Part shown: in pieces, positions 37,839 to 61,265 of the stretch | Layout: every line of letters starts with the position of its first letter | How positions within the stretch are numbered: position 1 is the stretch's first letter | DNA from: Escherichia phage mobillu | Reading direction: 5' to 3' (one strand) | Length of the DNA: 64,000 nt | Sequence record: MN850622.1 | Made by a program: the position numbers and the translations under genes | Notes under the pieces: generated by a model | What the model was told of the DNA's origin: nothing | What the model saw: the letters and a program-made list of their open reading frames with translations, nothing else | The model's database searches: none

Positions 37839-37843
37839 TCTCC

Positions 37844-40800
37844 TTATGCTAAACGAACGATATAGTTAAAAGCAACGTTTTTAACTGTGTTTTCTGTATT
37901 TCCTGTGGCATTTACAGTTATTGTATGTCCATGGGAACCAATTGCAACAGTATGAGAATGAGCACCAATACCTACCGAATGGGTATGAGCACCAATACCC
38001 ACAGTATGAGCATGGTTACCAGTAGCGCTAGTAGTTCCTGACCAACTATGAGTGTGGGCACCGTCTGAAGAAGTTTTGGCTATATTCGACCCTGCAGTAG
38101 CACCGTTCACGGTTCCAGTGAATTTAGCGTTGGCGTTTGCACCTACACTATTATATCCGTCATAGAATATGTTATTGGGTATGCCGGCTTGTATCTGAGG
38201 ACCTGAACGCGCGTGTTGGTGCGCACCAGCGGAACTAGTATTACCACTCACTGTATGGTTATGGTTACCAGTGGTATTACTGGTCTTAGTACCATAATCA
38301 AAGCTTGAAGTCGTTTTGCTACCGTAATCAAAACTAGAAGTGGTCTTAGTACCCAAATCTGTGCTTGATGCACTTGCACTATGGCTATGTGACTTAACAC
38401 CGTCTGCTTCTGTACTCAATACAGCACGCCCAGATGGTTTACCCTTGATAGTTTGACCACGCATATCAGGCAGAGCGCCGGAAGGATACACCGCAGCTAA
38501 CTTAGGATACAAGTCAGCATCAAATGTTTGACCTTCCATTATGGCATAACCTTCAGGAGGTGTATCAGTAGGCCAAGGAATCGGAGCACCAATAGGATAA
38601 CTTGAGACAATATCCGTCTTAAGGTTATTTATTGTGGTATTCAAGTTAGCAAAATTACCAGTGCCGCCAGTGATGTTACCATCAGTACCGAATTGAGCAT
38701 TACCGACTTTAAGAGGTTTAGCTATATCAACCGTATCAGAGTTTAATGCAATACCATGGGAGTAGGTGTAACTGTGCATACGAACGATGTTACCGCCATC
38801 GCCAATACCTAAATACCATTTCGGAACATCTGCTTTACGTCCTTGAATGAAGTTAGAAGACTCTTGTGTTGGAGCATTTATTCTAATAGCATCTGATGCC
38901 ATATTTACTGTTATTCGTTGACCAGCCGTAGTTCCAGCCGCTTCTACTTTAAATCTACCGCCGCCGATATCTACATCATGATCCATGGAAACTTTACCAT
39001 TACTTAATGTAATATAGAATGGACGTAAATTAGAAATACCACCTGATTCACCAGCATTCTGCGGAGTTGGAATAATATAAAACTTATCTTCAGAACGACG
39101 GAAAATAGCACCATATTCAGCATCGTAAATACGGAAAGCATCAGCAGTCCCGCCAATTTTAACCTGTCCGGTAATTGAGGCACCACCTTGAACAAACAAT
39201 CCATTATTCATTGTAACGTTGCCAACTAGAGTGCTTAATCCGTTAACTCTAAGACTTCCGTCGGTTATTAAGCTTCCTCTAGCATTAACCTGTCCATTGA
39301 ACTGAGTTACAACAGGGCCTGTAGTTTCAGAACCGGTCGGAGCTACGCGTTGAGAATAGAAATAATAACCTTGGCCATCAGAAACCTCAAATACGGTTTC
39401 TCGAGCTTTATCACCAGTAGCATTAAATGAGTTACCCCATGCTTTCACGGTCACATAACTTTTGTTCTGACCTGCACGAGTACCGCCTTCCCACATTATT
39501 TGCTTAGTGCCATCAATACCTGAAGCTGCTTTAAAAACTAGAGAAGCATTAGTTCCATCACCATTAAAATATAATCCGTTATTAAGTTTTAACGTTTGAA
39601 CAGAAGCGATGGTACCATCAGCACGCAAATTTAGCGAATTTGAACCAGTTTTAATATCTAAAATGCCGGGCTCAACAAGAAGTCCATCGCCCATACTAAC
39701 GGACATACGACCTGTACCACGGAAATAGTGATACATCTTAGCATTGCTGCTATATCCGATATGAGTCTGTCCATCGCCGTTATTATTACCATCAACATCG
39801 GTACGCGCAGTAAACATTGCTTGGTTATTATTTGGGAAATCCCAAGTAGAACCTGAATCTCGGCTATAACCAACCATCAATTTCTTGGTGCTGTTAATAC
39901 CATTGTTCAAAATGGTAGCCGAAGAAATACCGTTGGCCATTAAATCGATAACGCCGTCGCGAACCCATTTAATACCTGTATCGTTATCACCAATGGCAAT
40001 ACCTTTACCAAACGAAACCAATGGATAACGTCCTTGGTCACCAACATCAGCAAGACCTATACCTATCGAATTAGCAACAGACATACGCCCATCTGTGGTA
40101 TAAGACCATTGATAAACTTCGGCATTACGTCCCGTCCAATACGAAATATTCTGTGGTTTACCTGAACGAGCATCAGCAACTTCATGGAAAATAGCAGAAG
40201 AAACATGTCCGCGGAATTTACGAAGGTAGTTTATACCATTAGTATCCAAATCCGTTTCGGTTGGAGTATACTGCCAAGTCGGTAATGAAACTAAATCATA
40301 TGCAGTATCAATATTAGTGTCCCAAGATTTAGTGCTCACATTGATGTTTTTGGTAATAACTTTAGGACCAATTAAAGAACCAGCTTTAGTTTCAATATTA
40401 CTTTGAGTAACTAAATATCCATTAGATACTAATAAACTTCCGGAATCAACTTGAAAATTACCGTTTCGATTAAAAGTCCAGTATTTTGAAGTCCCGGTTT
40501 CATCAATATAATGGAATTTAAAACTACCTTCGTTTACTAATGTACCAGCAGAAAAAGTTCCATCTTTATAGCGTTGTTTAATCAGTGGATGGTATTCTGA
40601 AACAGAAGTAGTTGAACTTAAATCTGTAAAGATAGGGGCTTTATTCGAATGTTGGTTAGCCCAAGCGCCATTTCCAGTGGTTTTAGGTAAAAATTCAATG
40701 TATTTTCCTGCATAAACAAACTGATTTCCATTGAGATTATACGTGCCGTTTTGTAAATAATCACCAGTTTGAGTTACATTACCGTTAATATCCCCGCCCT

Positions 40801-41659: not shown

Positions 41660-41667
41660 TATTTATA
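41660..41667 (-). promoter_or_regulatory. late promoter (TATAAATA) for gene 36
   Basis: Reverse-complement TATAAATA between gp35 terminator hairpin and AAGGAG-ATG of gene 36. Confidence 0.6.
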
Positions 41668-41692
41668 CAAAAATGGGAGACCGAAGTCTCCC
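41668..41692 (-). terminator. intrinsic terminator after gene 35
   Basis: On - strand: gggagaCTTCGgtctccc + ATTTTTG. Confidence 0.65.
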
Positions 41693-41697: not shown

Positions 41698-42825
41698 TTA
41701 TTCTGATGCTTCTTTAAATTCTTGCCCAAATACCTTACCAGTATCAGTTGAAGATTGAGTAGGTAATGTCATTATGTCTGGAGCACTTAAAGATTCTGAA
41801 ACATAATTTACACGAATACCATTTATACCAAACTCAGCAGGTTTTGAAACGCTTCCATTACATGATACTTCAGTGAATATAACGTTTCTTAATCCACCTT
41901 GCCCGACTGGAGCTGTACGATAACAATAAATCGTGAACCCGTCAGCACCAGCAGGAATTTCTATGTAGTCTTCATATATCTTCCATTCACCTGCAACCCC
42001 ATCAAAGTTTATATCCTTAAATGAAATAGGTGAAGTAGAAGGAGATTTAAAGAAACGAATAGAAAGTCGTGTCGTCCCTTGTGCTAACAAATCAGCATCG
42101 GCCATTAGTTGGAATTTCATATAAAGGAAATCTCCAGGCTTCAATTTATACCCAGCGAGAGGTGTAATAATGGACGTTGTAGGCATCCTTTTAATTTCAT
42201 TATTAGTACCTCCAACAGCAGATAAAAATGTGTCTGTCGATTCGTACGTACGACTAGGGAAGCCGGTAGCACCAATATCATCGATCGTGTCGTACACAAC
42301 ATCAAGTGGTGTACTATAGTCGGTTGAAGTTTTCTTATTACTATACTTAATATGTTCTAGTGCTATAGCATTCTTACCAGAAATATAAAATGCCGAATAA
42401 GAAATGTCCACTATATTTAAAACTTGTTGAGCTAATGGAATAGCAGAACTTCCGGCTTTATTAAACCATGTAAGAACTTCTGGCGGAAAGTTTGTTTTAG
42501 CGTTAGTAACAAGAGCAAATATAAAATTTGAAGAATATGTGTCCATGAAAGTAACAAATGCACTTGACGTGGCGTCGTTTTCAGTAGAGAAATTATATGT
42601 CTTAGATTCAACTACTGCACCCGTTGTAGGATTTATTACACGAACGTTTAATCCAACGGAAAAAACCTGGGACCCAAGTGGATTATCCTGGAACTTAATA
42701 TAAGCAGGAGATGTTGATAGCGGGCAAGAGCCCGCTATGCTTAATTTAAATCGTACTGAATTGCTTTCCGATAAAAATGGCGTTTGGACGTATCCTTGTC
42801 CAAACTTAGCCATAAATTTTTCCAT
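41698..42825 (-). CDS. 35: gp35 long tail fibre hinge connector
   Basis: 375 aa; MEKFMA...LSESNSVR, C-terminal PAEFGINGIRVNY match T4 gp35. Confidence 0.85.
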   Translation of the reverse strand: MEKFMAKFGQGYVQTPFLSESNSVRFKLSIAGSCPLSTSPAYIKFQDNPLGSQVFSVGLNVRVINPTTGAVVESKTYNFSTENDATSSAFVTFMDTYSSNFIFALVTNAKTNFPPEVLTWFNKAGSSAIPLAQQVLNIVDISYSAFYISGKNAIALEHIKYSNKKTSTDYSTPLDVVYDTIDDIGATGFPSRTYESTDTFLSAVGGTNNEIKRMPTTSIITPLAGYKLKPGDFLYMKFQLMADADLLAQGTTRLSIRFFKSPSTSPISFKDINFDGVAGEWKIYEDYIEIPAGADGFTIYCYRTAPVGQGGLRNVIFTEVSCNGSVSKPAEFGINGIRVNYVSESLSAPDIMTLPTQSSTDTGKVFGQEFKEASE

Positions 42826-46742: not shown

Positions 46743-46750
46743 TATTTATA
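46743..46750 (-). promoter_or_regulatory. late promoter (TATAAATA) for gene 34
   Basis: Reverse-complement TATAAATA about 30 nt upstream of gene 34 ATG. Confidence 0.6.
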
Positions 46751-46753
46751 CCA

Positions 46754-46783
46754 GTTTACGCTTTCAAATGAGTGTGTTACTAT
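46754..46783 (+). promoter_or_regulatory. T4-type early promoter upstream of rnh
   Basis: GTTTAC + 18 + TACTAT in divergent 34/rnh intergenic region. Confidence 0.5.
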
Positions 46784-46815
46784 AGACAAGTTGACTAACT
46801 GAACAAGAGGTTCAT

Positions 46816-47733
46816 ATGGATTTAGAAATGATGTTAGATGAAGATTACAAAGAAGGTATTGCACTTGCTGACTTTAGTAACATTGCATTGGCAGCCGCAT
46901 TAAACAACTTTGAAGACGGCGATAAAATTACCGTTCCGATGGTTCGCCATGTAATCTTGAATTCAATTCGTAAAAACGTAGTGATGTTCCGTAAGCAAGG
47001 CTATACAAAATTTGTATTGTGTATGGATAATGCTACTTCGGGTTATTGGCGTCGTGACTTTGCTTACTATTACAAGAAAAATCGTAAAACCGATCGTGAA
47101 GCTTCAAAGTGGGATTGGGAAGGATATTTTACTGCACTCCATCAAGTTGTCGATGAGATTAAGAAATACATGCCATACGTTGTAATGGATATTGACAAGT
47201 ATGAAGCGGATGACCATATCGGTGTATTAACTAAATATTTGTCATTAGCTGGACATAAAGTATGTATTGTTGCATCGGATGGCGACTTTACACAATTACA
47301 CAAATATCCTAACGTTAAACAGTGGTCGCCACCACAGAAAAAATGGGTTAAAATTAAGAATGGTTCTGCTGAAATTGATTGCATGACTAAAATTCTTAAA
47401 GGTGACCGTAAGGATGGTGTTGCATCTGTTCGAGTTCGTGGCGACTTCTGGTTTACCAGAGTTGATGGTGAACGAACTCCAAGCATGAAAACATCAATTA
47501 TTGAAGCAATTGCTAACGACCGTTCTCAAGCCGAAGTATTATTAAGTGCAGAAGAATATAAACGGTATCAAGAAAATTTGGTTCTCATTGATTTTGATTA
47601 TATCCCTGATAATATTGCTTCAACCATTATAGAGTATTATAACTCATATAAACAACAACCTAAAGGCAAGATTTATTCATACTTTGTAAAATCTGGTCTT
47701 TCTAAATTAACAAGTGTAATTAATGAATTCTGA
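46816..47733 (+). CDS. rnh: RNase H (5-prime-3-prime exonuclease, FEN-like)
   Basis: 305 aa; length and N-terminal/central motifs as T4 RNase H; divergent from gene 34. Confidence 0.9.
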   Translation: MDLEMMLDEDYKEGIALADFSNIALAAALNNFEDGDKITVPMVRHVILNSIRKNVVMFRKQGYTKFVLCMDNATSGYWRRDFAYYYKKNRKTDREASKWDWEGYFTALHQVVDEIKKYMPYVVMDIDKYEADDHIGVLTKYLSLAGHKVCIVASDGDFTQLHKYPNVKQWSPPQKKWVKIKNGSAEIDCMTKILKGDRKDGVASVRVRGDFWFTRVDGERTPSMKTSIIEAIANDRSQAEVLLSAEEYKRYQENLVLIDFDYIPDNIASTIIEYYNSYKQQPKGKIYSYFVKSGLSKLTSVINEF

Positions 47734-47740
47734 GGTAAAC

Positions 47741-48010
47741 ATGGCTAAGAAAGAAGCAGTTGAATTTAATCAAGATGTGCATGGTGAAGAACTGGCTAAA
47801 CTAGTCAAGGAAGCTTCCGATAACAAACTTAAAATTTCTGGTTATAATGAACTGATTAAAGACATTCGTACTCGTGCTAAAGAAGAGCTTGGTGTCGATG
47901 GAAAAATGTTTAATCGTTTGTTAGCTCTTTATCATAAAGACGCTCGTGACCAATTTGAAGCTGAAAACGAAGAGGTAGTCGAGCTTTATGACACAGTTTT
48001 CACTAAGTGA
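47741..48010 (+). CDS. dsbA: DsbA-like dsDNA-binding late transcription enhancer
   Basis: 89 aa from ATG with GAGGT RBS; size and position rnh-dsbA-33 as T4. Confidence 0.6.
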   Translation: MAKKEAVEFNQDVHGEELAKLVKEASDNKLKISGYNELIKDIRTRAKEELGVDGKMFNRLLALYHKDARDQFEAENEEVVELYDTVFTK

Positions 48011-48326
48011 TATTAAACCGGTTGATGAGGCCGGTTTATCTGAACAAGAATTAGCAGTAAAACACGATAAAGATGATATCGCTAAATTGCTTGACCGACA
48101 AGAAAACGGATTCATTATCGAATCCATGGTTGAACAATTTGGTATGTCTTATTTAGAAGCAACAACTGCTTTCTTGGAAGAGAATTCTATTCCAGAAACA
48201 CAATTTGCTAAATTTATTCCTACAGGAATTGTTGAAAAAATTACAAGCGAAGCAATTGACGAAAACATGCTTCGCCCGTCAGTTGCTCGTGGTGAAAAAA
48301 CTAATACGTTAGATTTCTTATTATGA
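47988..48326 (+). CDS. 33: gp33 late transcription co-activator
   Basis: 112 aa; MTQFSL.DIKPVDE...LLDRQENGFIIE...TNTLDFLL as T4 gp33. Confidence 0.7.
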   Translation: MTQFSLSDIKPVDEAGLSEQELAVKHDKDDIAKLLDRQENGFIIESMVEQFGMSYLEATTAFLEENSIPETQFAKFIPTGIVEKITSEAIDENMLRPSVARGEKTNTLDFLL

Positions 48327-48976
48327 TTAAAATACGCATGCCTCCTGACGGAGAACGTTATATTAACGGTAAATCAGTATATAAACTATACTTGATGTGC
48401 AAAAACCACTTTGGTGGTCGGTATGATGTAATCAAATATAACTGGTGCATGCGTGTTTCGGATAATGCGTATCAAAAACGCCGAGATAAATATTTCTTTG
48501 AAAAACTAGCAGAGAAATATAAATTGAAGGAACTCACCTTGATATTCATAAGCAACTTAGTTGCTAACCAAGACGCATGGATTGGTGAGATATCGGACGC
48601 TGATGCATTAGTTTTCTATAGGGAATATATTGGACGTCTCAAACAAGCTAAAGAGACGTTTGCTGAAGACGTACGTAACATCTACTATTTCAGTAAGAAA
48701 GTTGAAGTTAGTGCGCTTCAAGAGATATTTGATTATAATAACAACGTTCAGTCGAGCTACATATTCAAATTGCTACAAAGCAATATAATTTCATTTGAGA
48801 CTTTCTTATTGTTAGACTCGTTTTTGAATATTATAGATAAGCACGACGAACTCACTGACAATTTAGTCTGGCAAAATTATTCTACCAAATTAAAGGCATA
48901 TCGAAAAATACTTCAAATCGATGTAAATGCTGCTAAGAAATTGTTCATAGAAACAATCAAATCATGTAAGTATTAA
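48323..48976 (+). CDS. 59: gp59 helicase loader
   Basis: 217 aa; position between 33 and 32; length equals T4 gp59. Confidence 0.75.
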   Translation: MIKIRMPPDGERYINGKSVYKLYLMCKNHFGGRYDVIKYNWCMRVSDNAYQKRRDKYFFEKLAEKYKLKELTLIFISNLVANQDAWIGEISDADALVFYREYIGRLKQAKETFAEDVRNIYYFSKKVEVSALQEIFDYNNNVQSSYIFKLLQSNIISFETFLLLDSFLNIIDKHDELTDNLVWQNYSTKLKAYRKILQIDVNAAKKLFIETIKSCKY

Positions 48977-49005
48977 GCTTTATTTCTTGTGTGTTAAAAT
49001 TACTT

Positions 49006-49013
49006 TATAAATA
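49006..49013 (+). promoter_or_regulatory. late promoter (TATAAATA) upstream of gene 32
   Basis: Exact TATAAATA about 80 nt upstream of gene 32 ATG. Confidence 0.45.
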
Positions 49014-49092
49014 AATCATACCAGCTACGAGGTATAAGTGTCGTAGCAACCAACTGTAAATAAATTAAATAATCTAAATAAAGGTAAATATA

Positions 49093-49995
49093 ATGTTTAA
49101 ACGTAAATCTACTGCTGACCTCGCTGCTCAAATGGCTAAACTGAACGGTAACAAAGGTTTCTCTTCAGAAGATAAAGGCGAATGGAAGCTGAAGCTAGAT
49201 GCATCAGGTAATGGTCAAGCGGTAATTCGTTTCTTGCCAGCAAAAACTGATGATGCACTACCATTTGCAATTCTTGTTAACCACGGTTTCAAGAAAAATG
49301 GTAAATGGTATATTGAAAATTGCTCTTCTACACATGGTGATTACGACTCTTGTCCTGTATGTCAGTACATTAGTAAAAATGACCTGTACAATACCAACAA
49401 AACTGAATATTCTCAACTGAAACGTAAAACTTCTTATTGGGCTAATATTCTGGTTGTTAAAGACCCTCAAGCTCCAGATAATGAAGGTAAAGTATTTAAA
49501 TATCGTTTCGGTAAAAAGATTTGGGACAAAATCAATGCAATGATTGCAGTTGATACCGAAATGGGTGAAACTCCGGTTGATGTTACTTGCCCGTTTGAAG
49601 GTGCCAACTTCGTTCTGAAAGCTAAGCAGGTTTCCGGTTTTAGCAACTATGACGAATCTAAATTCTTGGGTCAATCTGAAATTCCTCGTATTAATGACGA
49701 AGCATTCCAGAAAGAACTATATGACCAGATGGTAGACCTTACTACTTTGACGGCTAAAGACCAGTTCAAGTCCTTTGAAAAATTAAATGAATCTTTCGCT
49801 AAGGTTCTTGGTACTGCCGCTCTTGGTGGTGCAGCAGCCGCAGCAGCTTCTGTTGCAGATAAAGTTGCTTCTGACCTTGACGATTTTGATAAAGACATGG
49901 AAGCCTTTAGTTCTGCAAAAACTGAAGATGACTTCATGAGCTCTACCTCATCCTCTGATGATGGCGACCTAGATGACCTGTTAGCTGGTCTATAA
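49093..49995 (+). CDS. 32: gp32 single-stranded DNA-binding protein
   Basis: 300 aa; [36 protein letters not shown] and acidic C-terminus match T4 gp32; long 5-prime leader. Confidence 0.95.
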
Positions 49996-50001
49996 TAAAT
50001 T

Positions 50002-50023
50002 GGGAGACTTCGGTCTCCCTTTT
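50002..50023 (+). terminator. intrinsic terminator after gene 32
   Basis: gggagaCTTCGgtctccc + TTTT. Confidence 0.65.
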
Positions 50024-50050
50024 GAGTATCTGTAAATTGCCGAAAAAGTT

Positions 50051-50079
50051 GTTTACTTCTTCCCTGGATGTGTTAGTAT
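50051..50079 (+). promoter_or_regulatory. T4-type early promoter
   Basis: GTTTAC + 17 + TAGTAT, CTATCAAC leader; after gene 32 terminator. Confidence 0.5.
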
Positions 50080-50108
50080 AGACCTATCAACAACATGAGG
50101 AAATCAAA

Positions 50109-50495
50109 ATGGAAATCGGAAAATCTTATATCATCAACCCTTTATTTAAAGACGACTTTGCTAACGAGTGCCGTTGCAATACAATAATGCTAAATTTAAT
50201 AGAGAAGCACGGACCTAGTTTTGTTGTAGATGAAATGGAAAGTGATGATTGTGCTGGTGAATGTGTGGTACGTGTAACTATGGAAGATGGCACTGAATAC
50301 ATGGCGAGTGGCCCACTTGAGACGTATTTTGAGATTTACTCTGAAGAATTCAAATACTTTACTGAGGTAGATTTAGTAAAGCCTCAACCTACTAACGAAG
50401 GTATAACTTTAGGTGTAACAAAAATCCATTGTATCGTAGATGAAACCAACGTCGACGAAATCATCGAACTTTTGCAAAAAACTTTTAAAAAGTAG
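50109..50495 (+). CDS. hypothetical protein
   Basis: 128 aa after early promoter. Confidence 0.5.
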   Translation: MEIGKSYIINPLFKDDFANECRCNTIMLNLIEKHGPSFVVDEMESDDCAGECVVRVTMEDGTEYMASGPLETYFEIYSEEFKYFTEVDLVKPQPTNEGITLGVTKIHCIVDETNVDEIIELLQKTFKK

Positions 50496-50524
50496 TTTAT
50501 AATAAGATAGGGTTATGTTATAGT
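50495..50524 (+). promoter_or_regulatory. T4-type early promoter with inverted repeat
   Basis: GTTTAT + 18 + TATAGT; gataggg / ccctatc. Confidence 0.5.
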
Positions 50525-50557
50525 AGCCCTATCAAATCAAAAGTGAAGGAGAATAAA

Positions 50558-50806
50558 ATGAGATTGCAACGCCAGAGCATCAAAGATTCTGAAGTTAGAG
50601 GTAAATGGTACTTCAACATCGTTGGTAAAGACGCTGAACTCCTTGAACAAGCTGAAGAAGCTTTACGTGAAATGGGTTGGAATGAAGAATGTGATGGATG
50701 TCCACTCTACGAAGATGGTGAAAGCGCAGGATTCTGGATTCACCACTCTGATGTTGAATCGTTTAAAGCTGATTGGAAAGTTGTTAAGAAAAATCTGAGG
50801 AAATAA
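50558..50806 (+). CDS. hypothetical protein
   Basis: 82 aa from ATG with GAAGGAG RBS; track GTG start lies in promoter region. Confidence 0.5.
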   Translation: MRLQRQSIKDSEVRGKWYFNIVGKDAELLEQAEEALREMGWNEECDGCPLYEDGESAGFWIHHSDVESFKADWKVVKKNLRK

Positions 50807-50808
50807 AA

Positions 50809-51396
50809 ATGCTTAAATTAGTATTCGCATGCGCACCATCTAAAACAGTTGATGATAAATTGGAATATGCTTTTGGATTAGGTGATGGACTTCCATGGAA
50901 GCATATCAAACAAGATATGAGTAACTTTGTTGCTCGCACTAAAAACACTGTAATGGTTATGGGTGCTAAGACTTTTGCATCATTACCTCGTCTACTACCA
51001 GATCGTACTCATGTGGTTGTCACTGATATGGCCAGAAAACTGCCTAGGACTAAAACCAACGAACTTGCACGGTTCTATATCACCCAAGCAGAATTTATTG
51101 CCTTGGTAATGGGTAGTGAAATTAACCTGTTTAGCCCTTCAACAGACGTATCGTTTAAACTTTCTACTGAACATGTTGATGTATCTGTTATCGGCGGTCC
51201 TGCCTTATTAAAACAAGCACTGCCTTATGCCGATGAAATTGTGATGACTAAAATCATTAAGAAATGTCGTGTTAATTCAGACGTTCAACTTGATAAAGAT
51301 TTCATCCAAGATATTATGCTTCAACGTTCTATGGTAGAATCTCATTACTACAGAATCGATGAACTCACCGAAATTACTGAGAGCGTATATAAATGA
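50809..51396 (+). CDS. frd: dihydrofolate reductase
   Basis: 195 aa; LGDGLPW, VMGAKTF, VIGGPALL motifs as T4 DHFR. Confidence 0.85.
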   Translation: MLKLVFACAPSKTVDDKLEYAFGLGDGLPWKHIKQDMSNFVARTKNTVMVMGAKTFASLPRLLPDRTHVVVTDMARKLPRTKTNELARFYITQAEFIALVMGSEINLFSPSTDVSFKLSTEHVDVSVIGGPALLKQALPYADEIVMTKIIKKCRVNSDVQLDKDFIQDIMLQRSMVESHYYRIDELTEITESVYK

Positions 51397-52253
51397 AACA
51401 ATACCAATACCTGATTAATGATATCCTAGAAAATGGCTACGAAACAGACGACCGTACAGGCACAGGAACAATTGCCCTGTTCGGAACTAAATTACGTTGG
51501 GACCTGACTAAAGGATTCCCTGCAGTAACAACTAAGAAATTAGCATGGAAAGCTTGTATTGCCGAACTACTGTGGTTCATGTCTGGTTCTACCAACGTTA
51601 ATGATTTGCGTATTCGTACTCATGGTAGTCTTATTCAAGGTAAAACTATTTGGGACGACAACTATGAAAATCAGGCAAAAGACCTTGGATATCATAGCGG
51701 CGAACTTGGTCCTATTTACGGTAAGCAATGGCGTGATTTTGGCGGTGTAGACCAATTGGTCAAAACTATCGACCGCATTAAAGCTCTTCCTAATGATCGT
51801 CGTCAAATAGTTTCTGCATGGAACCCAGCCGAAATTGACCAAATGGCTCTTCCTCCTTGTCATATGTTCTATCAATTTAATGTGCGTAATGGGCATCTTG
51901 ATTTACAATGGTATCAACGCAGTGTAGATGTTTTCTTGGGCCTGCCGTTCAACATTGCCTCGTACGCTGCCTTGACGCATATTGTAGCGAAGATGTGTAA
52001 CCTTATCCCAGGTGATTTAGTGTTCTCAGGCGGCAACACGCATATCTACAGCAATCATGTAGAACAATGCAAAGAAGTTCTTCGTCGTGAACCTAAAGAG
52101 TTATGTTCTCTTGAAATTAATTGGCCTAGTAATTTTGAGAATTGGCCTACAAAAATCCAAATGGACTGGGTTACCGGAACGATGACACATTCTGATTTCG
52201 TTCTTAAAAATTACGAATCACATCCAGCTATAAAAGCTAAAATGGCGGTATAA
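51393..52253 (+). CDS. td: thymidylate synthase
   Basis: 286 aa; DRTGTGT, PPCHMFYQF, YQRSVDVFLGLPFNIASYA; uninterrupted (no intron). Confidence 0.9.
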   Translation: MKQYQYLINDILENGYETDDRTGTGTIALFGTKLRWDLTKGFPAVTTKKLAWKACIAELLWFMSGSTNVNDLRIRTHGSLIQGKTIWDDNYENQAKDLGYHSGELGPIYGKQWRDFGGVDQLVKTIDRIKALPNDRRQIVSAWNPAEIDQMALPPCHMFYQFNVRNGHLDLQWYQRSVDVFLGLPFNIASYAALTHIVAKMCNLIPGDLVFSGGNTHIYSNHVEQCKEVLRREPKELCSLEINWPSNFENWPTKIQMDWVTGTMTHSDFVLKNYESHPAIKAKMAV

Positions 52254-52254
52254 A

Positions 52255-52509
52255 ATGATTTTACGTTTTATTAATTCATATGGCACCACAATTTTTGAAA
52301 TGAAAAATCCAAGTGAACTGGATATCCCTTCACCAAATAGTGAAATCACAATTAAAGGTGAACGATTCATTTGTTATTCACATGAACGAATTTATGAATA
52401 TCGTGAATTTTGTGGTGGTTACGGTATGGAAAAAGAACCATTGGTTTATTTCGATATCACGGTCTTGACACCTAAAGAATACGAAGAAATTATTGCTGAG
52501 GATAATTAA
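52255..52509 (+). CDS. hypothetical protein
   Basis: 84 aa. Confidence 0.45.
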   Translation: MILRFINSYGTTIFEMKNPSELDIPSPNSEITIKGERFICYSHERIYEYREFCGGYGMEKEPLVYFDITVLTPKEYEEIIAEDN

Positions 52510-52533
52510 CGCTTCAGTTTAAAAGTGTATAAT
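52510..52533 (+). promoter_or_regulatory. putative middle promoter for nrdA
   Basis: cGCTTCA + 11 nt + TATAAT. Confidence 0.35.
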
Positions 52534-52596
52534 AAATTAACGGGATAAATACTATCCCGTTTGGAGTAATGTCTATCAACCTATACTGAGGAATAT

Positions 52597-54852
52597 ATGC
52601 AAGTAACTAAGAGCAGTGGTGTATCACAAAATTTTGATGCACAGAAAATTATTCAAGTCTTAACTTGGCAATGTGAAGGAACACAAATTGATCCATATGA
52701 ATTGTACGAAGAAATTAAGACCCATCTTGTCGACGGGATGAGCACCAAAGATATCCAGAAGATTTGTATTAAAGTTGCAGCTAACTCGATTTCTGTCGAA
52801 GAACCTGATTATCAGTATGTCGCCGCCAAAGGGCTAATGTTTGCACTTCGTAAAGATGTATATGGGCAGTTTGAACCGCCTGCTTTTATCGACCATATTT
52901 CTTATTGTGTTAATGAAGGCAAATATGACCCTGAGCTGTTGTCTCAATATTCAGCAGAAGAAATCATTTATCTCGATTCACAGATTAAACATGAACGAGA
53001 CTTTGACCTGACTTATGCTGGTGCTATGCAGCTTAAAGAAAAATATCTAGTTAAAGATAAAACAACTGGGAAGATTTATGAAACTCCCCAGTTTGCTATC
53101 ATGGCTATTGGCATGGCCTTACACCAAGACGAAACTCATGACCGTTTGAAACATATTATTCGTTTTTATGATGCCGTTTCTACTCATCAAGTTTCATTGC
53201 CAACCCCAATTATGGCAGGTGCTCGTACTCCAACTCGCCAGTTCTCTAGTTGTGTAGTTATTGAAGCCGGTGATTCGTTAAAATCTATTAACAAAACTTC
53301 AGCATCAATTATTGAATATATTTCTAAACGAGCTGGTATCGGTATCAACGTTGGTATGCTTCGTGCAGAAGGTTCTAAGATCGGTATGGGTGAAGTTCGA
53401 CATACGGGTGTTATTCCATTCTGGAAACATTTCCAAACTGCAGTAAAATCTTGTTCTCAAGGTGGTATTCGTGGTGGTGCTGCTACAGCGTATTATCCGA
53501 TGTGGCACTTAGAAGTAGAGAACCTATTAGTTCTGAAAAATAACAAAGGCGTGGATGAAAACCGTATTCGACATATGGACTACGGAATTCAGATTAATGA
53601 CCTCATGATGGAACGCCTTGGTAAAAATGATTATATTACTTTATTTAGCCCTCACGAAATGTCAGGCGAACTATATTACTCGTTCTTTGAAGATCAAGAT
53701 AAATTCCGTGAGCTTTATGAGAAAGCTGAAAAAGACCCAACAATTAGAAAGAAAAGAATCAAAGCACTAGAACTCTTTGAATTGTTCATGACTGAACGTT
53801 CTGGTACTGCTCGAATTTATCCACAGTTTGTTGATAACACGAATAACTACACTCCATTTATTCGTGAAAAAGCTCCAATTCGTCAAAGTAACTTATGTTG
53901 TGAAATCGCTATTCCAACTAATGATGTGAATGGTCCTGATGCTGAAATTGGTTTATGCACATTATCTGCTTTTGTATTAGATAAATTTGATTGGCAAGAC
54001 CAAGATAAAATTAATGAACTTGCTGAAGTACAAGTACGTGCACTTGATAACCTGCTAGACTATCAAGATTATCCGGTTCCAGAAGCTTTAAAAGCTAAAA
54101 AGCGTCGTAATCTTGGTGTTGGTGTTACGAACTATGCTGCATGGTTAGCTTCTAACTTTGCTTCATATGAAGACGCTAACGATTTGACTCATGAATTGTT
54201 TGAGAGATTGCAATATGGCCTTATCAAAGCATCAATCAAACTCGCCAAAGAAAAAGGATGTTGCGAGTATTATTCAGACACTAAATGGTCTAGAGGCGAA
54301 TTACCTATCGACTGGTACAATAAAAAGATTGACCAAATCGCAGCCCCGAACTACGTCTGTGACTGGGAAGAACTTCGAGCTAAACTCAAAGAACATGGAA
54401 TTCGTAACTCAACGTTGTCTGCACTCATGCCTTGTGAGTCAAGCAGTCAAGTATCAAACTCTACAAACGGGATTGAGCCACCACGTGGTCCAGTAAGTAT
54501 TAAAGAATCTAAAGAAGGCAACTTCCGACAGGTTGTTCCTAATATCGAACATAACATGAGTCTTTACGACTACGCGTGGAAACTTGCTAAGAAAGGTAAT
54601 AAACCTTATTTGACCCAAGTTGCTATCATGTTGAAATGGGTGTGCCAATCTGCTTCTGCTAATACTTACTATGACCCTGCAGTATTTGAGAAAGGTAAAG
54701 TGCCAATGTCAGTAATGCTTGACGATCTGCTTTACTTCTGGTACTTTGGCGGAAAAAACCTCTACTATCATAACACTCGTGATGGGTCTGGTACAGACGA
54801 CTATGAATTAGAAACACCTAAAGCAGAAGATTGTTCTGCTTGTAAGCTTTAA
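52597..54852 (+). CDS. nrdA: ribonucleotide reductase class Ia large subunit
   Basis: 751 aa; ATP-cone N-terminus, NLCCEI active-site region, C-terminal CSACKL-like tail. Confidence 0.9.
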   Translation: MQVTKSSGVSQNFDAQKIIQVLTWQCEGTQIDPYELYEEIKTHLVDGMSTKDIQKICIKVAANSISVEEPDYQYVAAKGLMFALRKDVYGQFEPPAFIDHISYCVNEGKYDPELLSQYSAEEIIYLDSQIKHERDFDLTYAGAMQLKEKYLVKDKTTGKIYETPQFAIMAIGMALHQDETHDRLKHIIRFYDAVSTHQVSLPTPIMAGARTPTRQFSSCVVIEAGDSLKSINKTSASIIEYISKRAGIGINVGMLRAEGSKIGMGEVRHTGVIPFWKHFQTAVKSCSQGGIRGGAATAYYPMWHLEVENLLVLKNNKGVDENRIRHMDYGIQINDLMMERLGKNDYITLFSPHEMSGELYYSFFEDQDKFRELYEKAEKDPTIRKKRIKALELFELFMTERSGTARIYPQFVDNTNNYTPFIREKAPIRQSNLCCEIAIPTNDVNGPDAEIGLCTLSAFVLDKFDWQDQDKINELAEVQVRALDNLLDYQDYPVPEALKAKKRRNLGVGVTNYAAWLASNFASYEDANDLTHELFERLQYGLIKASIKLAKEKGCCEYYSDTKWSRGELPIDWYNKKIDQIAAPNYVCDWEELRAKLKEHGIRNSTLSALMPCESSSQVSNSTNGIEPPRGPVSIKESKEGNFRQVVPNIEHNMSLYDYAWKLAKKGNKPYLTQVAIMLKWVCQSASANTYYDPAVFEKGKVPMSVMLDDLLYFWYFGGKNLYYHNTRDGSGTDDYELETPKAEDCSACKL

Positions 54853-54906
54853 GACTTTTTATTATAATTTACTCATGGATGAGTTAATAACTAAGTGAGA
54901 AATATA

Positions 54907-56082
54907 ATGAGTACAGTTTTTAACACACATCAAGTCGATGTTTTGAATGAACCGATGTTCTTTGGTTCTGGTCTTGGCCTCGCACGGTATGATATTCAGC
55001 GTCATAAAGTTTTTGAAGAACTTATTGAAAAGCAATTGTCGTTTTTCTGGCGCCCAGAAGAGGTAAACTTGATGTTGGATTCGGCCCAGTTTAATAAGCT
55101 TCCACAGTTCCAACAGGACATCTTTACCAACAACCTTAAGTATCAATCATTATTAGATTCTATCCAAGGTAGAGCACCATCTGCGGTACTTATGTCATTG
55201 CTTTCAGACCCTTCATTAGATACATGGGTTGCTACATGGACTTTCAGTGAAACTATTCACTCTCGTTCATATACTCATATTATGCGAAATCTTTATACAG
55301 ATCCATCGAAGGTGTTTGATGAGATTGTATTAGATGAAGCTATTATGAAGCGTGCCGAATCTATCGGACGATATTATGATGATGTTCTAGTCAAGACTCG
55401 TCATTGGGAAAATGCTAAGGAAGTTTATGAGTGTTCAATAGGCTCATGCCAGCAGAATGATATTGAGATGTACGAAGAAATAATGTTTAACGCCAAGCGT
55501 GATTTAATGAAGTCTCTTTATCTCTGTTTGCATGTTATCAACGCCTTAGAAGCTATTCGTTTTTACGTATCATTTGCATGTACTTTCAACTTCCATAAAA
55601 ATATGGAAATTATGGAAGGTAATGCAAAGATTATGAAGTTCATTGCTCGTGACGAACAACTCCATCTCAAGGGTACTCAGTACATTATCCGTCAACTTCA
55701 ATCTGGTACTGATGGCGATGAGTGGGTTCAAATTGCTAAAGAATGTGAACAAGAAGCAGTTGACATTTTTATGGAAGTAAATAGTCAAGAGAAGGAATGG
55801 GCTGCACACCTCTTTAAAGACGGTACATGTCCAGGTATCAATACGCAGAGTATGTGTGCTTTTGTTGATTACTTGACTGTGTCTCGTATGAAACAGTGCG
55901 GTTTGCCATGTCCAATTACTGATGCTCCGACCAAGCATCCGTATCCTTGGATTCGTGAATATCTGAACTCTGATTTAGTTCAAGCAGCTCCTCAGGAAGT
56001 TGAAATCAGTTCTTATCTTGTCGCACAAATTGATAACGATGTAGACCAAAATGTAATCAATTCATACAAAAAATATTTCTAA
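54907..56082 (+). CDS. nrdB: ribonucleotide reductase class Ia small subunit
   Basis: 391 aa from ATG 54907; di-iron ligand region (EXXH motifs), uninterrupted. Confidence 0.9.
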   Translation: MSTVFNTHQVDVLNEPMFFGSGLGLARYDIQRHKVFEELIEKQLSFFWRPEEVNLMLDSAQFNKLPQFQQDIFTNNLKYQSLLDSIQGRAPSAVLMSLLSDPSLDTWVATWTFSETIHSRSYTHIMRNLYTDPSKVFDEIVLDEAIMKRAESIGRYYDDVLVKTRHWENAKEVYECSIGSCQQNDIEMYEEIMFNAKRDLMKSLYLCLHVINALEAIRFYVSFACTFNFHKNMEIMEGNAKIMKFIARDEQLHLKGTQYIIRQLQSGTDGDEWVQIAKECEQEAVDIFMEVNSQEKEWAAHLFKDGTCPGINTQSMCAFVDYLTVSRMKQCGLPCPITDAPTKHPYPWIREYLNSDLVQAAPQEVEISSYLVAQIDNDVDQNVINSYKKYF

Positions 56083-56086
56083 GGAC

Positions 56087-56100
56087 GGGACTTCGGTCCC
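56087..56100 (+). terminator. UUCG hairpin after nrdB (weak terminator)
   Basis: gggaCTTCGgtccc, poor T-run. Confidence 0.4.
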
Positions 56101-56108
56101 ACTTTATT

Positions 56109-56519
56109 ATGAAAGATATCGCCGCCGAATATTCCTTTATTAAATATACAGAATTGGAGCTATTAGAAGATGCAACAATTAAAACAGTTGATGTCCCTAA
56201 TAAGAAAAATGTCATATACGCTATTGCTATAGATGACGAACTTGTGTATATTGGTAAAACCAAGAATTTAAAGAAACGCATTAACTATTATCGAACAGCC
56301 ATAAATCGAAAAGACCAGACTTCAGATTCAAGAAAATCACTTATGATTTTGGATGCCTTAATGCAAGGCAAAAAGGTTGAATTCTGGGCCCGCCAATGTT
56401 TTGACCTTTCAGTCACCAACGAACTTGGTTCAATGACCATCGCAACAATGGACCTTGAAGAACCGCTTTTTATCAAAAAGTTCAACCCGCCTTGGAATAT
56501 CCAACATAAGAAAAAGTAG
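56109..56519 (+). CDS. denA: DenA-like GIY-YIG endonuclease II
   Basis: 136 aa; VIYAIAIDDELVYIGKTKNLKKRINYYR GIY-YIG-like; position after nrdB as T4 denA. Confidence 0.65.
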   Translation: MKDIAAEYSFIKYTELELLEDATIKTVDVPNKKNVIYAIAIDDELVYIGKTKNLKKRINYYRTAINRKDQTSDSRKSLMILDALMQGKKVEFWARQCFDLSVTNELGSMTIATMDLEEPLFIKKFNPPWNIQHKKK

Positions 56520-56548
56520 TTTACATACCACAAGGATTGTGGTACAAT
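56519..56548 (+). promoter_or_regulatory. T4-type early promoter upstream of rnlA
   Basis: GTTTAC + 18 + TACAAT; ccacaa / ttgtgg repeat. Confidence 0.5.
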
Positions 56549-56566
56549 TTAAAAAAAACTAACTGA

Positions 56567-57700
<1,134 letters not shown>

Positions 57701-57702
57701 TG

Positions 57703-57732
57703 GTTTACAAACACCAAGGAAGGTGTTACTAT
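57703..57732 (+). promoter_or_regulatory. T4-type early promoter upstream of alc
   Basis: GTTTAC + 18 + TACTAT, TTATCAAC leader. Confidence 0.55.
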
Positions 57733-57762
57733 GGCTTTTATCAACAACACGAGGAGAAAATT

Positions 57763-58263
57763 ATGAATATGCAATTGATTACTAACGATATGGTCGTAAC
57801 CGCTTTTGGAGACACAACTGACGGAATCCGAGTCTTTAAGAAAGGACGTCCAGTTGGTTATCTTACTGACCTACGTGTTACACTGGCCAAAAATCTTAAA
57901 AAGAAAGTAAAACAAAAAGAGTATTCCACCCGATACGCTGAAGAGAAACGCGAAGCTATGCCAGAAGCAGTTAATGCCATGGTAGAATTTCTTCAAAACA
58001 ATTTGACTAAATATGACGCTAATGTGTTCATTAATATTAGTCAACCAAACGTACATATCGCAGGTATCAAATTCTATATTATTTGCGACCCTCTTACCGA
58101 CAAATTCAACCGTCTCGGAATCTCAAGCCCATATCATACAGCAGAAGAGTTGTGTGTATTGTTTGAATCATACAAAATCCAAACTGACGGGCCTAAAACA
58201 GTTCTTATCAATGGATTATCCCGAGACGAAATCATTGAGATTATTCAAACATGCTTAAAGTAA
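57763..58263 (+). CDS. alc: Alc-like protein (inhibitor of transcription from cytosine-containing DNA)
   Basis: 166 aa from ATG with GAGGAG RBS; position between rnlA and pseT and length as T4 alc; track start 57700 lies in promoter. Confidence 0.5.
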   Translation: MNMQLITNDMVVTAFGDTTDGIRVFKKGRPVGYLTDLRVTLAKNLKKKVKQKEYSTRYAEEKREAMPEAVNAMVEFLQNNLTKYDANVFINISQPNVHIAGIKFYIICDPLTDKFNRLGISSPYHTAEELCVLFESYKIQTDGPKTVLINGLSRDEIIEIIQTCLK

Positions 58264-58607
58264 ATGCATCATATATTGTAGTGGCAGCTTTTGCAGTTGT
58301 TGCTACTGTAACAATAGCATTTCTGAACCATAAAGTCGATTCGCTGAATACTGAATTGGCTTCTGTTAAAGAGACTGCTAAAAACAATGCTAAAGTATTA
58401 GACGACTTCAAGATTCAATATCAGTCAATCGAAGAAATGACTTATAAGAACCGTGTTTTAGTTGACCAACTTAAGGCTGAAAATGAAAAGCTCCGTAAGG
58501 ATTCGAAGAAGAAGAACGTGGTGGCAAGTAAGCCAGGATTGGTCGAAAAACAAATCAACAGGTCCTTCGATTCCTTTGCAGAAGACCTCAGGAAGCTCTC
58601 AGAATGA
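58251..58607 (+). CDS. i-spanin (Rz-like)
   Basis: 118 aa; N-terminal TM segment then coiled-coil-like charged region. Confidence 0.55.
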   Translation: MLKVNASYIVVAAFAVVATVTIAFLNHKVDSLNTELASVKETAKNNAKVLDDFKIQYQSIEEMTYKNRVLVDQLKAENEKLRKDSKKKNVVASKPGLVEKQINRSFDSFAEDLRKLSE

Positions 58608-58894
58608 TTAAATTAACTGTGGCTGTATTATCTATTGGTCTCCTAGTTGGATGTACTCAGGATGTGCCAGTAAGCCCTAAAGAAACTTTACATCCTTCAT
58701 GGCCTACGCCTATTTCCGAATACAACCAGAAATGGCAAGTAAAGGTTATTGATGGTAATCCGTGGGTTGGAATGCCATTTGAAGACTCTCAAGAATTTCG
58801 TATCTGGTTAAACGACGTAAAAAGATATATACATGACCAGAAGACTATGTTATGTTATTATCGTAGTGGTTTAAAAGAGGAAAAATGCCAATGA
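58604..58894 (+). CDS. o-spanin (Rz1-like lipoprotein)
   Basis: 96 aa; lipoprotein signal LLVGC, Pro-rich; ATGA-coupled to i-spanin. Confidence 0.55.
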   Translation: MIKLTVAVLSIGLLVGCTQDVPVSPKETLHPSWPTPISEYNQKWQVKVIDGNPWVGMPFEDSQEFRIWLNDVKRYIHDQKTMLCYYRSGLKEEKCQ

Positions 58895-59109
58895 CTAAAG
58901 AACAGCATGAATACATTAAAGGGCTTATCTATGAATCTGAAATGGCGGCTATGATTTATGGGCGCCAGATTCAACGATTAGAATCTTTGCCTCCGACTAA
59001 TGACCGATTGTTAGTTCAGTCTCGTGCTAATCTGAAAAATGAATATCAGAATAAGTGGGCAGTAGCGACTAAAGCTCTTCACGAGTATATTGAATCTTTA
59101 GTAAAATAG
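58885..59109 (+). CDS. hypothetical protein
   Basis: 74 aa. Confidence 0.45.
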   Translation: MPMTKEQHEYIKGLIYESEMAAMIYGRQIQRLESLPPTNDRLLVQSRANLKNEYQNKWAVATKALHEYIESLVK

Positions 59110-59138
59110 TTTACAAACTCTCAGGAGCAGAGTATAAT
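59109..59138 (+). promoter_or_regulatory. T4-type early promoter with inverted repeat
   Basis: GTTTAC + 18 + TATAAT; aggagca / tgctcct. Confidence 0.6.
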
Positions 59139-59166
59139 GCTCCTATGGATAATTGAGGAAATCTAA

Positions 59167-59465
59167 ATGAAAACATTACTAGAGAATTACATCAAACGGT
59201 CTGATGAGTATATTGATATCTGCCGTGGAATGACACTTGTAGATTATGACAAAGATGCAGCAAAGGCACTAGATGAAGCAGGTAAAGCTCTTCGTAAAGC
59301 TGCTAAAGAAAAAGGGTTGGATTTGCAACAACTCAAAAGTCATATGATTAAATTTATTTCTTCAAACGTTAGAAGTACGTCAATTAATAAAAACGTTGCT
59401 GAAATTAATAAAGACCGGCGCGAACTCAACATTCGTATTCTTGAAGCTTTCTTAGGAATCAAATA

Positions 59466-59466
<1 letters not shown>
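59167..59466 (+). CDS. hypothetical protein
   Basis: 99 aa after early promoter. Confidence 0.5.
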
Positions 59467-60553
<1,087 letters not shown>

Positions 60554-60745
60554 ATGAAACGATTATATGAAGTGATTGAGGCCATCGAACAGCATAAAGA
60601 ATATTTGTTTGTAGCCTGGCCTTTAGTAAATGGACAGTTCGGTATTGATGTGCTGGACTATGAGCATGAAGAACGTTTGGACGGTGGTATATTTGATAAC
60701 GTCGACCAGGCAATTGAATGGTTAAATGAAAACTATGTACGATAA
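60554..60745 (+). CDS. hypothetical protein
   Basis: 63 aa. Confidence 0.45.
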   Translation: MKRLYEVIEAIEQHKEYLFVAWPLVNGQFGIDVLDYEHEERLDGGIFDNVDQAIEWLNENYVR

Positions 60746-60950
60746 ACATCATGAAATCGAAGATGAAGCATACAAAATGCTTCGTAAACTAGTGGGACTT
60801 AATATGAGTCCTACATTAATCAACAAACTCGCAGGAATTCGTAATGATCTGAATACTCGTTACAAAGGTGAATATCATGTAGAGTTTGTTCCTGTAGGTG
60901 AACCAACCGAGCGATTTGTTGTTCGAGTTAAAGTAAATACTGTGCACTGA
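60726..60950 (+). CDS. hypothetical protein
   Basis: 74 aa; start uncertain. Confidence 0.4.
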   Translation: MKTMYDKHHEIEDEAYKMLRKLVGLNMSPTLINKLAGIRNDLNTRYKGEYHVEFVPVGEPTERFVVRVKVNTVH

Positions 60951-60957
60951 GGTAATT

Positions 60958-61233
60958 ATGTTCCCAACTTATTCTGAAATTGTAAAGGTAGTCTTCAGTC
61001 AGATTATTGCTAATAATATGTTTGAAGTGCTTGATAATGCAGCCGAACTCAGAGTTCATGCTCAACTAACTCATGTACTCAATGCTTTGCTCCCAGACCA
61101 AGTAGATTCTATTGCTATTACTCTTCTCCCTGGGTCTGCACACGTCATAGTGGTATTTGATCTTGACGGCGATTTAGTTATCCAATGTGATATCAATTTC
61201 GGTACACAAAAAATTGAATGCAAAGCAATTTAA
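60958..61233 (+). CDS. hypothetical protein
   Basis: 91 aa. Confidence 0.45.
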   Translation: MFPTYSEIVKVVFSQIIANNMFEVLDNAAELRVHAQLTHVLNALLPDQVDSIAITLLPGSAHVIVVFDLDGDLVIQCDINFGTQKIECKAI

Positions 61234-61235
61234 TG

Positions 61236-61265
61236 GTTTACAACATGGTGGAGTTGTGATACTAT
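61236..61265 (+). promoter_or_regulatory. T4-type early promoter heading the unit that contains DAHP synthase and cd
   Basis: GTTTAC + 18 + TACTAT. Confidence 0.55.

Follow-up and report, generated by a model that had tools for sequence, protein, structure and literature searches.

C(UUCG)G hairpins in the Mosigvirus Escherichia phage mobillu: probable T4-type mRNA elements, mostly at gene ends

UUCG hairpins in T4-type phages

Hairpins with a UUCG loop closed by a C-G pair have been known since 1988 and are a textbook property of T-even phages. According to later accounts of the original work, the UUCG tetraloop was first discovered in T4 mRNA (Tuerk et al. 1988, PNAS 85:1364, via PMC4371310), and the T4 CUUCGG hairpins showed extraordinary stability and blocked reverse transcriptase (Tuerk et al. 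1988, via PMC4371310 and PMC8948821). One of these accounts notes that such hairpins are numerous between T4 genes (PMC8948821, citing Tuerk 1988). Their functions are said to be varied, mRNA stabilisation included (PMC8948821). For two T4 genes, 38 and 25, experiments have shown that a hairpin must form for translation (PMC3014915; Nivinskas et al. 1999; Malys and Nivinskas 2009). The gene 38 hairpin cuts the spacing between the Shine-Dalgarno sequence (SD) and the AUG from 22 nt to 5 nt, and translation is efficient only with it (PMC3014915).

Terminators have also been predicted in T4-like genomes with TransTerm. Of six genomes compared, all had such a site between genes 35 and 36, and five had one after gene 32 (Nolan et al. 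2006, PMC1524935). Hairpins of the present class were already predicted in RB69, although the UUCG loop was not singled out in that work. Another described arrangement is the PeSL of phages RB49 and phi1, in which a terminating stem-loop lies beside a strong sigma-70-like early promoter between genes; PeSLs have about 100 bp of conserved sequence and usually GGGG...CCCC stems that lie inside the promoter or flank it (Arbiol et al. 2010, PMC2839356).

The DNA analysed here, called the window, is a stretch of 64,000 nucleotides of Escherichia phage mobillu (MN850622.1) with a GC content of about 37%. It comes from a T4-like myovirus in the genus Mosigvirus (RB69 group). Comparison of one 2.5-kb stretch around the hairpin at 50002 and of two 25-kb stretches gave 96-98% identity to Mosigvirus phages of Escherichia and Shigella, for example SHSML-52-1, FL31 and AV110. 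Gene names were carried over from the RefSeq annotation of SHSML-52-1 and from T4. Genes are on the plus strand at 1-36300 and 46750-64000 and on the minus strand between 36300 and 46750, where the tail-fibre genes 34-38 and t are located.

The repeated hairpins of the window are very probably the C(UUCG)G hairpins of T4-type phage mRNA, elements that would work at the RNA level and mostly as intergenic terminators. Like the T4 hairpins, they have a C-G-closed UUCG loop on a short, perfect, GC-rich stem, are mainly intercistronic, lie on the transcribed strand and occur in many copies. A specialist recognises them at once, the discovery of the UUCG tetraloop having come from T4 hairpins of the same class. 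Unlike T4, which has a CCUAGAG loop after gene 32 and a GCAA loop before denA, the window has UUCG at both sites. The translational-bypass hairpin of T4 gene 60 has no counterpart in the window.

Number, orientation and position of the hairpins

The initial annotation listed ten positions. When UUCG loops on perfect stems were sought, all ten proved to carry a C(UUCG)G hairpin, and two further hairpins came to light at 6205-6224 and 32186-32211, bringing the total to 12. In every one the C-G-closed loop is carried by a Watson-Crick stem, with a stem length of 5-11 bp. The hairpins and the promoters next to them are as follows.

6205-6224, plus strand: hairpin UCCCCUUC-UUCG-GAAGGGGA with no U-run, inside gene 40 (codons about 15-21)
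7960-7981, plus strand: hairpin AAAGGAGAC-UUCG-GUCUCCUUU, 4 nt past the gene 41 stop
7986-8015, plus strand: early promoter downstream of the 7960 hairpin
13921-13942, plus strand: hairpin AAGGAAUCC-UUCG-GGAUUCCUU followed by U6, putative soc terminator, z-score -4.65
13957-13986, plus strand: early promoter downstream of the 13921 hairpin
23345-23360, plus strand: hairpin AAGGGC-UUCG-GCCCUU, 50 nt upstream of the gene 39 ATG
23363-23369 and 23382-23387, plus strand: MotA box and -10 element of a middle promoter; the U-run of the 23345 hairpin merges into the MotA box
25226-25243, plus strand: hairpin AAGCUCC-UUCG-GGAGCUU with a weak U-run, overlapping the gene 39 stop codon
29852-29867, plus strand: hairpin GGGGAC-UUCG-GUCCCC followed by U6, 6 nt past the rIIB stop
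32186-32211, plus strand: 11-bp UUCG hairpin with no U-run, inside the small membrane-protein ORF 52.1, just past ac
32261-32285, plus strand: middle promoter downstream of the 32186 hairpin
33716-33733, plus strand: hairpin GGGAGC-UUCG-GCUCC(U) with a U-run, 76 nt past the gene 52 stop
33758-33786, plus strand: early promoter downstream of the 33716 hairpin
37819-37842, minus strand: hairpin between the gene 38 SD and AUG, in the layout of a split ribosome-binding site
41675-41692, minus strand: 18-mer hairpin identical to that at 50002, then AUUUUUG, between genes 35 and 36
41660-41667, minus strand: late promoter TATAAATA for gene 36, just downstream of the 41675 hairpin
50002-50019, plus strand: hairpin GGGAGACTTCGGTCTCCC, that is GGGAGAC-UUCG-GUCUCCC, putative terminator of gene 32 (ssDNA-binding protein), 6 nt past the stop
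50020-50023, plus strand: short U-run TTTT, then GAGTAT, part of the putative gene 32 terminator
50051-50079, plus strand: T4-type early promoter (GTTTACT, spacer of 16-17 nt, TAGTAT) for the frd-side genes
56087-56100, plus strand: hairpin GGGAC-UUCG-GUCCC, between the nrdB stop with the denA SD and the denA AUG

The hairpins occur far beyond chance. Eleven CUUCGG hairpins with a stem of at least 6 bp were observed, compared with a mean of 0.02 in first-order Markov simulations, and no other tetraloop sequence recurred more than twice in the window. The folding-energy calculation that had been proposed as a check gave -7.5 to -15.9 kcal/mol for the stems alone, values computed from nearest-neighbour parameters that already contain a UUCG bonus and not measured stabilities. 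All 12 hairpins folded as predicted when their flanks were included, with z-scores of -1.2 to -4.7. Furthermore, CUUCGG hairpins ranked among the top sites in each of the 20-kb scans for terminator-like structures. An Rfam scan of the whole window at gathering thresholds returned zero matches, and these hairpins are without a curated family.

The copies had been described as near-identical, which is correct for a few of them only. When the 18-mer was searched with up to three mismatches, three sites in the window matched: 41675 and 50002, which are identical, and 7962, with two mismatches. The stems of the other nine differ, and what these nine have in common is limited to the C(UUCG)G loop and a 5' arm rich in purines. 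Likewise, the statement that the hairpins recur on both strands is true but misleading, as 12 of 12 are in the sense orientation of the local genes; the two on the minus strand (37819 and 41675) sit within the minus-strand tail-fibre operon. The orientation is informative because CTTCGG differs from its reverse complement. The sequence around gene 39 in 33 T4-like loci, 572 kb altogether, holds 86 CUUCGG hairpins on the strand of gp39 and 8 on the opposite strand.

Ten of the 12 hairpins are intergenic or at a stop codon, and two (6205 and 32186) are inside coding sequence. The earlier description of a position mostly after stop codons applies to eight hairpins, which start within 8 nt of a stop, and not to the other four. 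An early promoter, said to follow often, is found downstream of four (7960, 13921, 33716 and 50002), whereas 23345 and 32186 precede middle promoters with a MotA box and 41675 precedes the late TATAAATA promoter. The four hairpins with early promoters resemble the PeSL of RB49 and phi1. However, the window copies have no extended homology, the hairpin is upstream of the -35 element, and several copies precede a middle promoter, a late promoter or none.

A GC hairpin followed by a U-rich tract was called by the scan at 13921, 23345, 25226, 29852, 41675 and 50002, with 56087 marginal, and the U-run at 33716 was recognised by eye. The scan called no terminator U-tract at 6205, 32186, 7960 and 37819. 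The U-run is weak at 25226 and 7960 and is not convincing at 56087. The proposal that the hairpins are terminators or RNA-stability elements suits most of the copies, which are sense-only, post-stop, followed by a U-run in about half of the cases, conserved, covarying and predicted in RB69. It does not fit all of them, as 37819 and 56087 occupy gaps between an SD and an AUG, and 6205 and 32186 are intragenic and have no U-run. Since these four and 7960 lack a convincing U-run, the word terminator is not applicable to the whole set.

Terminator-like copies and their counterparts in relatives

The hairpin after gene 32 has a folding energy of -12.0 kcal/mol for the stem alone and a z-score of -3.0 with its flanks. 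In T4, gene 32 is followed by GGGGACC-CUAGA-GGUCCCC and U6 and then by an early promoter, the same layout as in the window. This T4 hairpin is the functional gene 32 terminator, which Prentki and Krisch reportedly used in the omega interposon in 1984. RB69 carries the identical 18-mer after gene 32 and a variant with two mismatches between genes 35 and 36.

The gene 32 site was compared in 80 IMG/VR loci with relatives of gp32 (38-100% identity), of which about 78 were evaluated by seeking the most stable hairpin in the first 120 nt past the stop codon. Most of them had a GC-rich hairpin at a distance of 0-37 nt from the stop, with a T-run behind it. The loop with its closing pair was CUUCGG in the majority of loci, and the variants CUCCGG, CUACGG, CUUUGG, CGAAAG, CGAGAG, CCUAGAG and CGCAAUG also occurred. 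The stems varied widely (5' arms GGGAGAC, AGGAGCC, GGGGACC, GCUACUC, AGGAACC, AGGACUC, AGGGAUC and others). Covariation, which had been named as a test of the hairpins, was evident: among 15 distinct tetraloop versions, six of the seven stem pairs had changed on both sides and all cells could pair, a complete pairing that is partly by construction because the alignment was built from best-fold hairpins. The covariation score was 0.835, compared with 0.25 for shuffled sequences and at most 0.22 when the partner columns were slid. The closing C-G pair was invariant among the 15 versions. The informative point at gene 32 is that a hairpin is almost always present while its sequence is free to vary.

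At the junction of genes 35 and 36, a hairpin followed by TATAAATA was found in 23 of 23 loci examined. The loops were mostly UUCG, and some were GAAA, GCAA or UUAU. The exact 18-mer shared by the gene 32 and gene 35/36 sites of the window was found in at least 120 viral (IMG/VR) contigs with GC contents of 30-63%. Among the matches listed, the flanks were dissimilar in most and near-identical in a few; a T-run lay downstream, in the UUCG orientation, in 107 of 122 copies, and an A-rich stretch lay upstream in 28 of 122. The occurrence in so many contigs, the mostly dissimilar flanks and the usual T-run point to repeated convergence on one solution, and the exact 18-mer is best understood as a compact terminator that has been re-invented repeatedly.

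Seven of the 12 window hairpins correspond to TransTerm sites of RB69, namely those after genes 41, soc, 39, 52 and 32, upstream of gene 39 and between genes 35 and 36. The RB69 list (PMC1524935, Additional file 6) has 'ORF041c<--41' for 7960, 'mrh.2<--soc' for 13921, 'ORF003c<--60plus39' for 25226 and 'motA<--52' for 33716. The hairpins at rIIB, nrdB/denA, genes 37/38, gene 40 and ORF 52.1 are not in that list (PMC1524935).

T4 itself has UUCG hairpins at the orthologous sites uvsX/40, soc, upstream of gene 39 and genes 37/38, with compensatory differences. At soc, for instance, the T4 ortholog has AAGGACUCC...GGAGUCCUU where the window has AAGGAAUCC in the 5' arm, a compensatory change. Of the 33 loci, 19 had the hairpin upstream of gene 39, at a distance of 50-66 nt from the ATG (50-53 nt in 17 of the 19), with stems AAGGGC, AAGGCC or AAAGGCC and a MotA box downstream. 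In all, the loci around gene 39 gave 73 distinct hairpin contexts, of which 72 were intergenic or just past a stop and 48 had a T-run, defined as at least 5 T in the 8 nt past the stem. The exact UUCG loop appears to be favoured but not essential, since the close relative SHSML-52-1 tolerates UUAG at the gene 39 stop and UUCU between genes 37 and 38.

The presence, enrichment, strand bias and positions of the hairpins, their conservation across genera and their covariation are observed here, and a simple scheme may be drawn up for this phage in which we infer effects on termination, mRNA stability and translation. The short GC stem with its C(UUCG)G loop would fold upon transcription. Followed by a U-run, as at 13921, 23345, 29852, 33716, 50002 and 41675, it would act as a rho-independent terminator or attenuator at the gene end; 7960 and 25226, with weaker U-runs, may act similarly. 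The terminator hairpin would leave a 3' end shielded from exonucleases, and the next transcription unit would start at the early, middle or late promoter directly downstream. Between genes 37 and 38 (37819) and between nrdB and denA (56087), the folded hairpin would bring the SD and the AUG to a working distance, and for the intragenic copies at 6205 and 32186 the likeliest role is that of a barrier at mRNA 3' ends or of a stability element. The similarity among copies would reflect convergent selection for one very stable loop, a G-rich 5' arm and a C/U-rich 3' arm and not recent copying. The value of the analysis is mainly in annotation, as it marks the ends of transcription units, plus two unusual translation-initiation regions, in an RB69-like phage. 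It may be of use for operon maps, for the engineering of therapeutic T4-like phages and as a source of compact strong terminators.

The initial annotation had suggested that the hairpins spread by recombination or duplication. As copies of a mobile or duplicating cassette, PeSL-type or MITE-like, they would owe their identity to recent common descent, and this we consider very unlikely. The two identical 18-mers and the third with two differences are in keeping with a cassette, but the same 18-mer is widespread among viral contigs with mostly dissimilar flanks. The early promoters downstream of four hairpins recall PeSL (PMC2839356); however, when the 80-nt flanks of all 12 copies were compared by pairwise local alignment, only matches of 18-25 nt were found, well short of the PeSL conservation of about 100 bp between copies. 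The alignment scores reached at most 13.5, against a 99th percentile of 10.5 in the null, and each was explained by a functional motif, namely the promoter -10/start region, the MotA-box promoter or the SD with its AUG. An extra ORF in SHSML-52-1, gp067, lies beside the 33716 site between two near-identical promoter-leader copies of about 75 bp, where the window has a single copy (33757-33834), and is the kind of exchange described for PeSL in RB49 and phi1 (PMC2839356). Yet the UUCG hairpin lies outside this repeat, and the downstream copy in SHSML-52-1 carries a different stem-loop; the insertion or deletion of gp067 was evidently mediated by the promoter-leader repeat and not by the hairpin. 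The gene 32 and gene 35/36 terminators of one genome have the same stem core in some lineages, about three of eight with that of the window among them, whereas they differ in the other five. Concerted evolution of these two terminators was also considered and rejected, the shared core giving a weak signal at most. Finally, T4, RB69 and other genera have hairpins at the orthologous sites, with different stems.

Two other readings concern the level at which the hairpins act. The stems are perfect inverted repeats in the DNA, and Arbiol et al. speculated that a recombination protein could bind GGGG...CCCC stem-loops (PMC2839356), so that cruciforms, recombination hotspots, replication or packaging signals or protein-binding palindromes might be envisaged. 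If a palindrome acted as DNA, its asymmetric loop should face either strand indifferently, yet at all 12 sites the sense strand has UUCG and not CGAA, with the same bias in relatives. The T-run is likewise asymmetric, being downstream far more often than an A-rich stretch is upstream among the 18-mer matches listed, and the stems are free to vary while pairing is kept. A DNA-level function was rejected on the strand asymmetry, and its probability is close to negligible. The hairpins could instead be purely elements of mRNA stability or processing, such as barriers to 3' exonucleases or shields of RNase E or RegB sites, with no significant termination. The absence of a U-run at 6205, 32186, 56087 and 37819, the extensive co-transcription of T4 genes in long overlapping units and the known role of CUUCGG hairpins in mRNA stabilisation (PMC8948821) are in line with such a role. 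Nevertheless, a T-run is needed for termination and not for blocking an exonuclease, and T-runs follow two thirds of the distinct copies in relatives and most of the exact 18-mers among the matches listed; moreover, a new promoter lies immediately downstream at seven sites. A function in stability with no termination is for these reasons judged extremely unlikely for the set as a whole, and RNA hairpins that mostly terminate transcription between genes remain the preferred reading.

Split ribosome-binding sites and intragenic copies

The hairpin at 37819 is the ortholog of the T4 gene 38 hairpin with its split ribosome-binding site. Downstream of the gene 37 stop, the order is UAAGG(AG), a 24-nt hairpin, 5 nt and the gene 38 AUG (37813-37811); the SD itself, UAAGGAG at 37840-37846, runs into the 5' arm of the hairpin. 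The arrangement is also present in T4, with a UUCG hairpin, and in SHSML-52-1, with the UUCU loop.

The hairpin class as such is long known, and two features may be regarded as mildly new: the conserved layout of SD, hairpin and AUG at denA, and structure-preserving synonymous changes in gene 40. At the denA junction, UAAGGA (56080-56085) is followed by 1 nt, the 14-nt hairpin, 8 nt and the AUG (56109), so that the spacing between SD and AUG is 23 nt in the linear form and about 9 nt when folded. This geometry of SD, hairpin, short spacer and AUG is that of T4 genes 38 and 25, and both 37819 and 56087 conform to the definition of such a split site, in which an SD and an AUG over 20 nt apart enclose a stable hairpin and an effective spacing of about 5-11 nt is left. 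Twenty-five distinct junction sequences were obtained from 29 loci with denA 60-100% identical, and the order of nrdB stop/SD, hairpin, 6-10 nt and AUG was kept in most of them, with covarying stems. A literature search for denA described as a split ribosome-binding site found no paper. As the denA hairpin comes immediately after the nrdB stop codon, it may serve as a 3'-end element too.

It is conceivable, if on balance rather unlikely, that two further proposals hold. The nrdB/denA junction would be a third, undescribed split ribosome-binding site conserved in T-even phages, coupling the end of nrdB to the translation of denA, and the GGGAGAC...GUCUCCC stem common to the gene 32 and gene 35/36 terminators in this Mosigvirus, in RB69 and in two other IMG/VR genomes would stem from gene conversion in short patches now and then, or from a preference of the lineage for one stem, rather than from pure convergence.

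The hairpin at 6205, inside gene 40, begins 35 nt past the uvsX stop and has a z-score of -3.2. Because it has no U-run, its most likely function is that of a 3'-end barrier for the uvsX mRNA. At the same site T4 has UCCCCCUC...GAGGGGGA where the window has UCCCCUUC...GAAGGGGA. The differences between the two, CCU to CCC and GAA to GAG, are at third codon positions, both synonymous and mutually compensatory, which argues for selection on RNA structure within the coding sequence. A more distant group keeps the gene 40 stem with a UCAG loop.

Stem and loop conservation

In SHSML-52-1, the close Mosigvirus relative whose annotation, along with T4, supplied the gene names, two of the orthologous hairpins carry a single-base change in the loop, and a further UUCG hairpin lies within a coding sequence in the window:

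SHSML-52-1 locus L001, about 26026-26043: hairpin at the gene 39 stop, loop UUAG
SHSML-52-1 locus L002, about 5440-5465: hairpin at g37/g38, loop UUCU
Window 6205-6224: UUCG hairpin within the gene 40 coding sequence

The stems of both altered SHSML-52-1 hairpins are unbroken. Because the loops changed while the stems remained intact, conservation among close relatives is stricter for the stem than for the precise UUCG sequence of the loop. When the gene 40 hairpin of the window was compared with that of T4, the stem was found to be preserved by paired synonymous third-position changes (CCU/GAA vs. CCC/GAG). The gene 40 stem is also retained in a distant group, where the loop is UCAG, and the loop is UUUG in one close relative (locus L272).

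Near-identical UUCG terminators occur at two unrelated sites in T4, and the most frequent 5' arm among the surveyed loci is GGACUCC:

T4 genome 130339-130360 (locus L003, 340-361): terminator after 30.9, beginning GAGGACUCC
T4 genome 15303-15324 (locus L004, 15303-15324): terminator after soc, beginning AAGGACUCC

A strong 9-bp hairpin (6 GC) with the loop CUCUUG and no UUCG was also observed on the - (sense) strand at window 42717-42738, about 90 nt into the 5' end of gene 35 and just past gene 34.

The denA start region

Window 56080-56111: nrdB stop and SD (UAAGGA), hairpin, 8 nt, denA AUG

This order of elements is kept across T4-like genera with covarying stems, and the loop of the T4 hairpin is GCAA. 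The region looks like a so far undescribed split ribosome-binding site, in which a hairpin separates the SD from the AUG as in T4 genes 38 and 25. The denA start in the T4 GenBank record AF158101 appears to be annotated farther upstream, near or inside the hairpin.

Insertions and deletions relative to SHSML-52-1

The small extra ORF gp067 is present in SHSML-52-1 and absent from the window. In SHSML-52-1 it is flanked by near-identical repeats of about 75 bp, each consisting of an early promoter, a leader and ATGTCTAAA:

SHSML-52-1 locus L002, 1061-1138 and 1382-1460: repeats flanking gp067
Window 33757-33834: single repeat copy without the ORF

This arrangement resembles the promoter-early stem-loop (PeSL) cassettes of RB49 and phi1, and the presence or absence of gp067 is a PeSL-like insertion/deletion attributed to recombination between the promoter-leader repeats.

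Short insertion/deletion or replacement differences were found at three other sites:

Window 8969-9024: at about this position the 46-codon ORF gp021 of SHSML-52-1 is missing
Window 13398-13448
Window 52502-52588

SHSML-52-1 also carries a homing endonuclease gene between genes 33 and 59 (L002 15942-16614) that is missing from the window at 48322-48326. In T4, the interval between genes 59 and 32 holds a different homing endonuclease gene, segG. The gene 33/59/32 region is an apparent hotspot where homing endonuclease genes differ in presence or absence.
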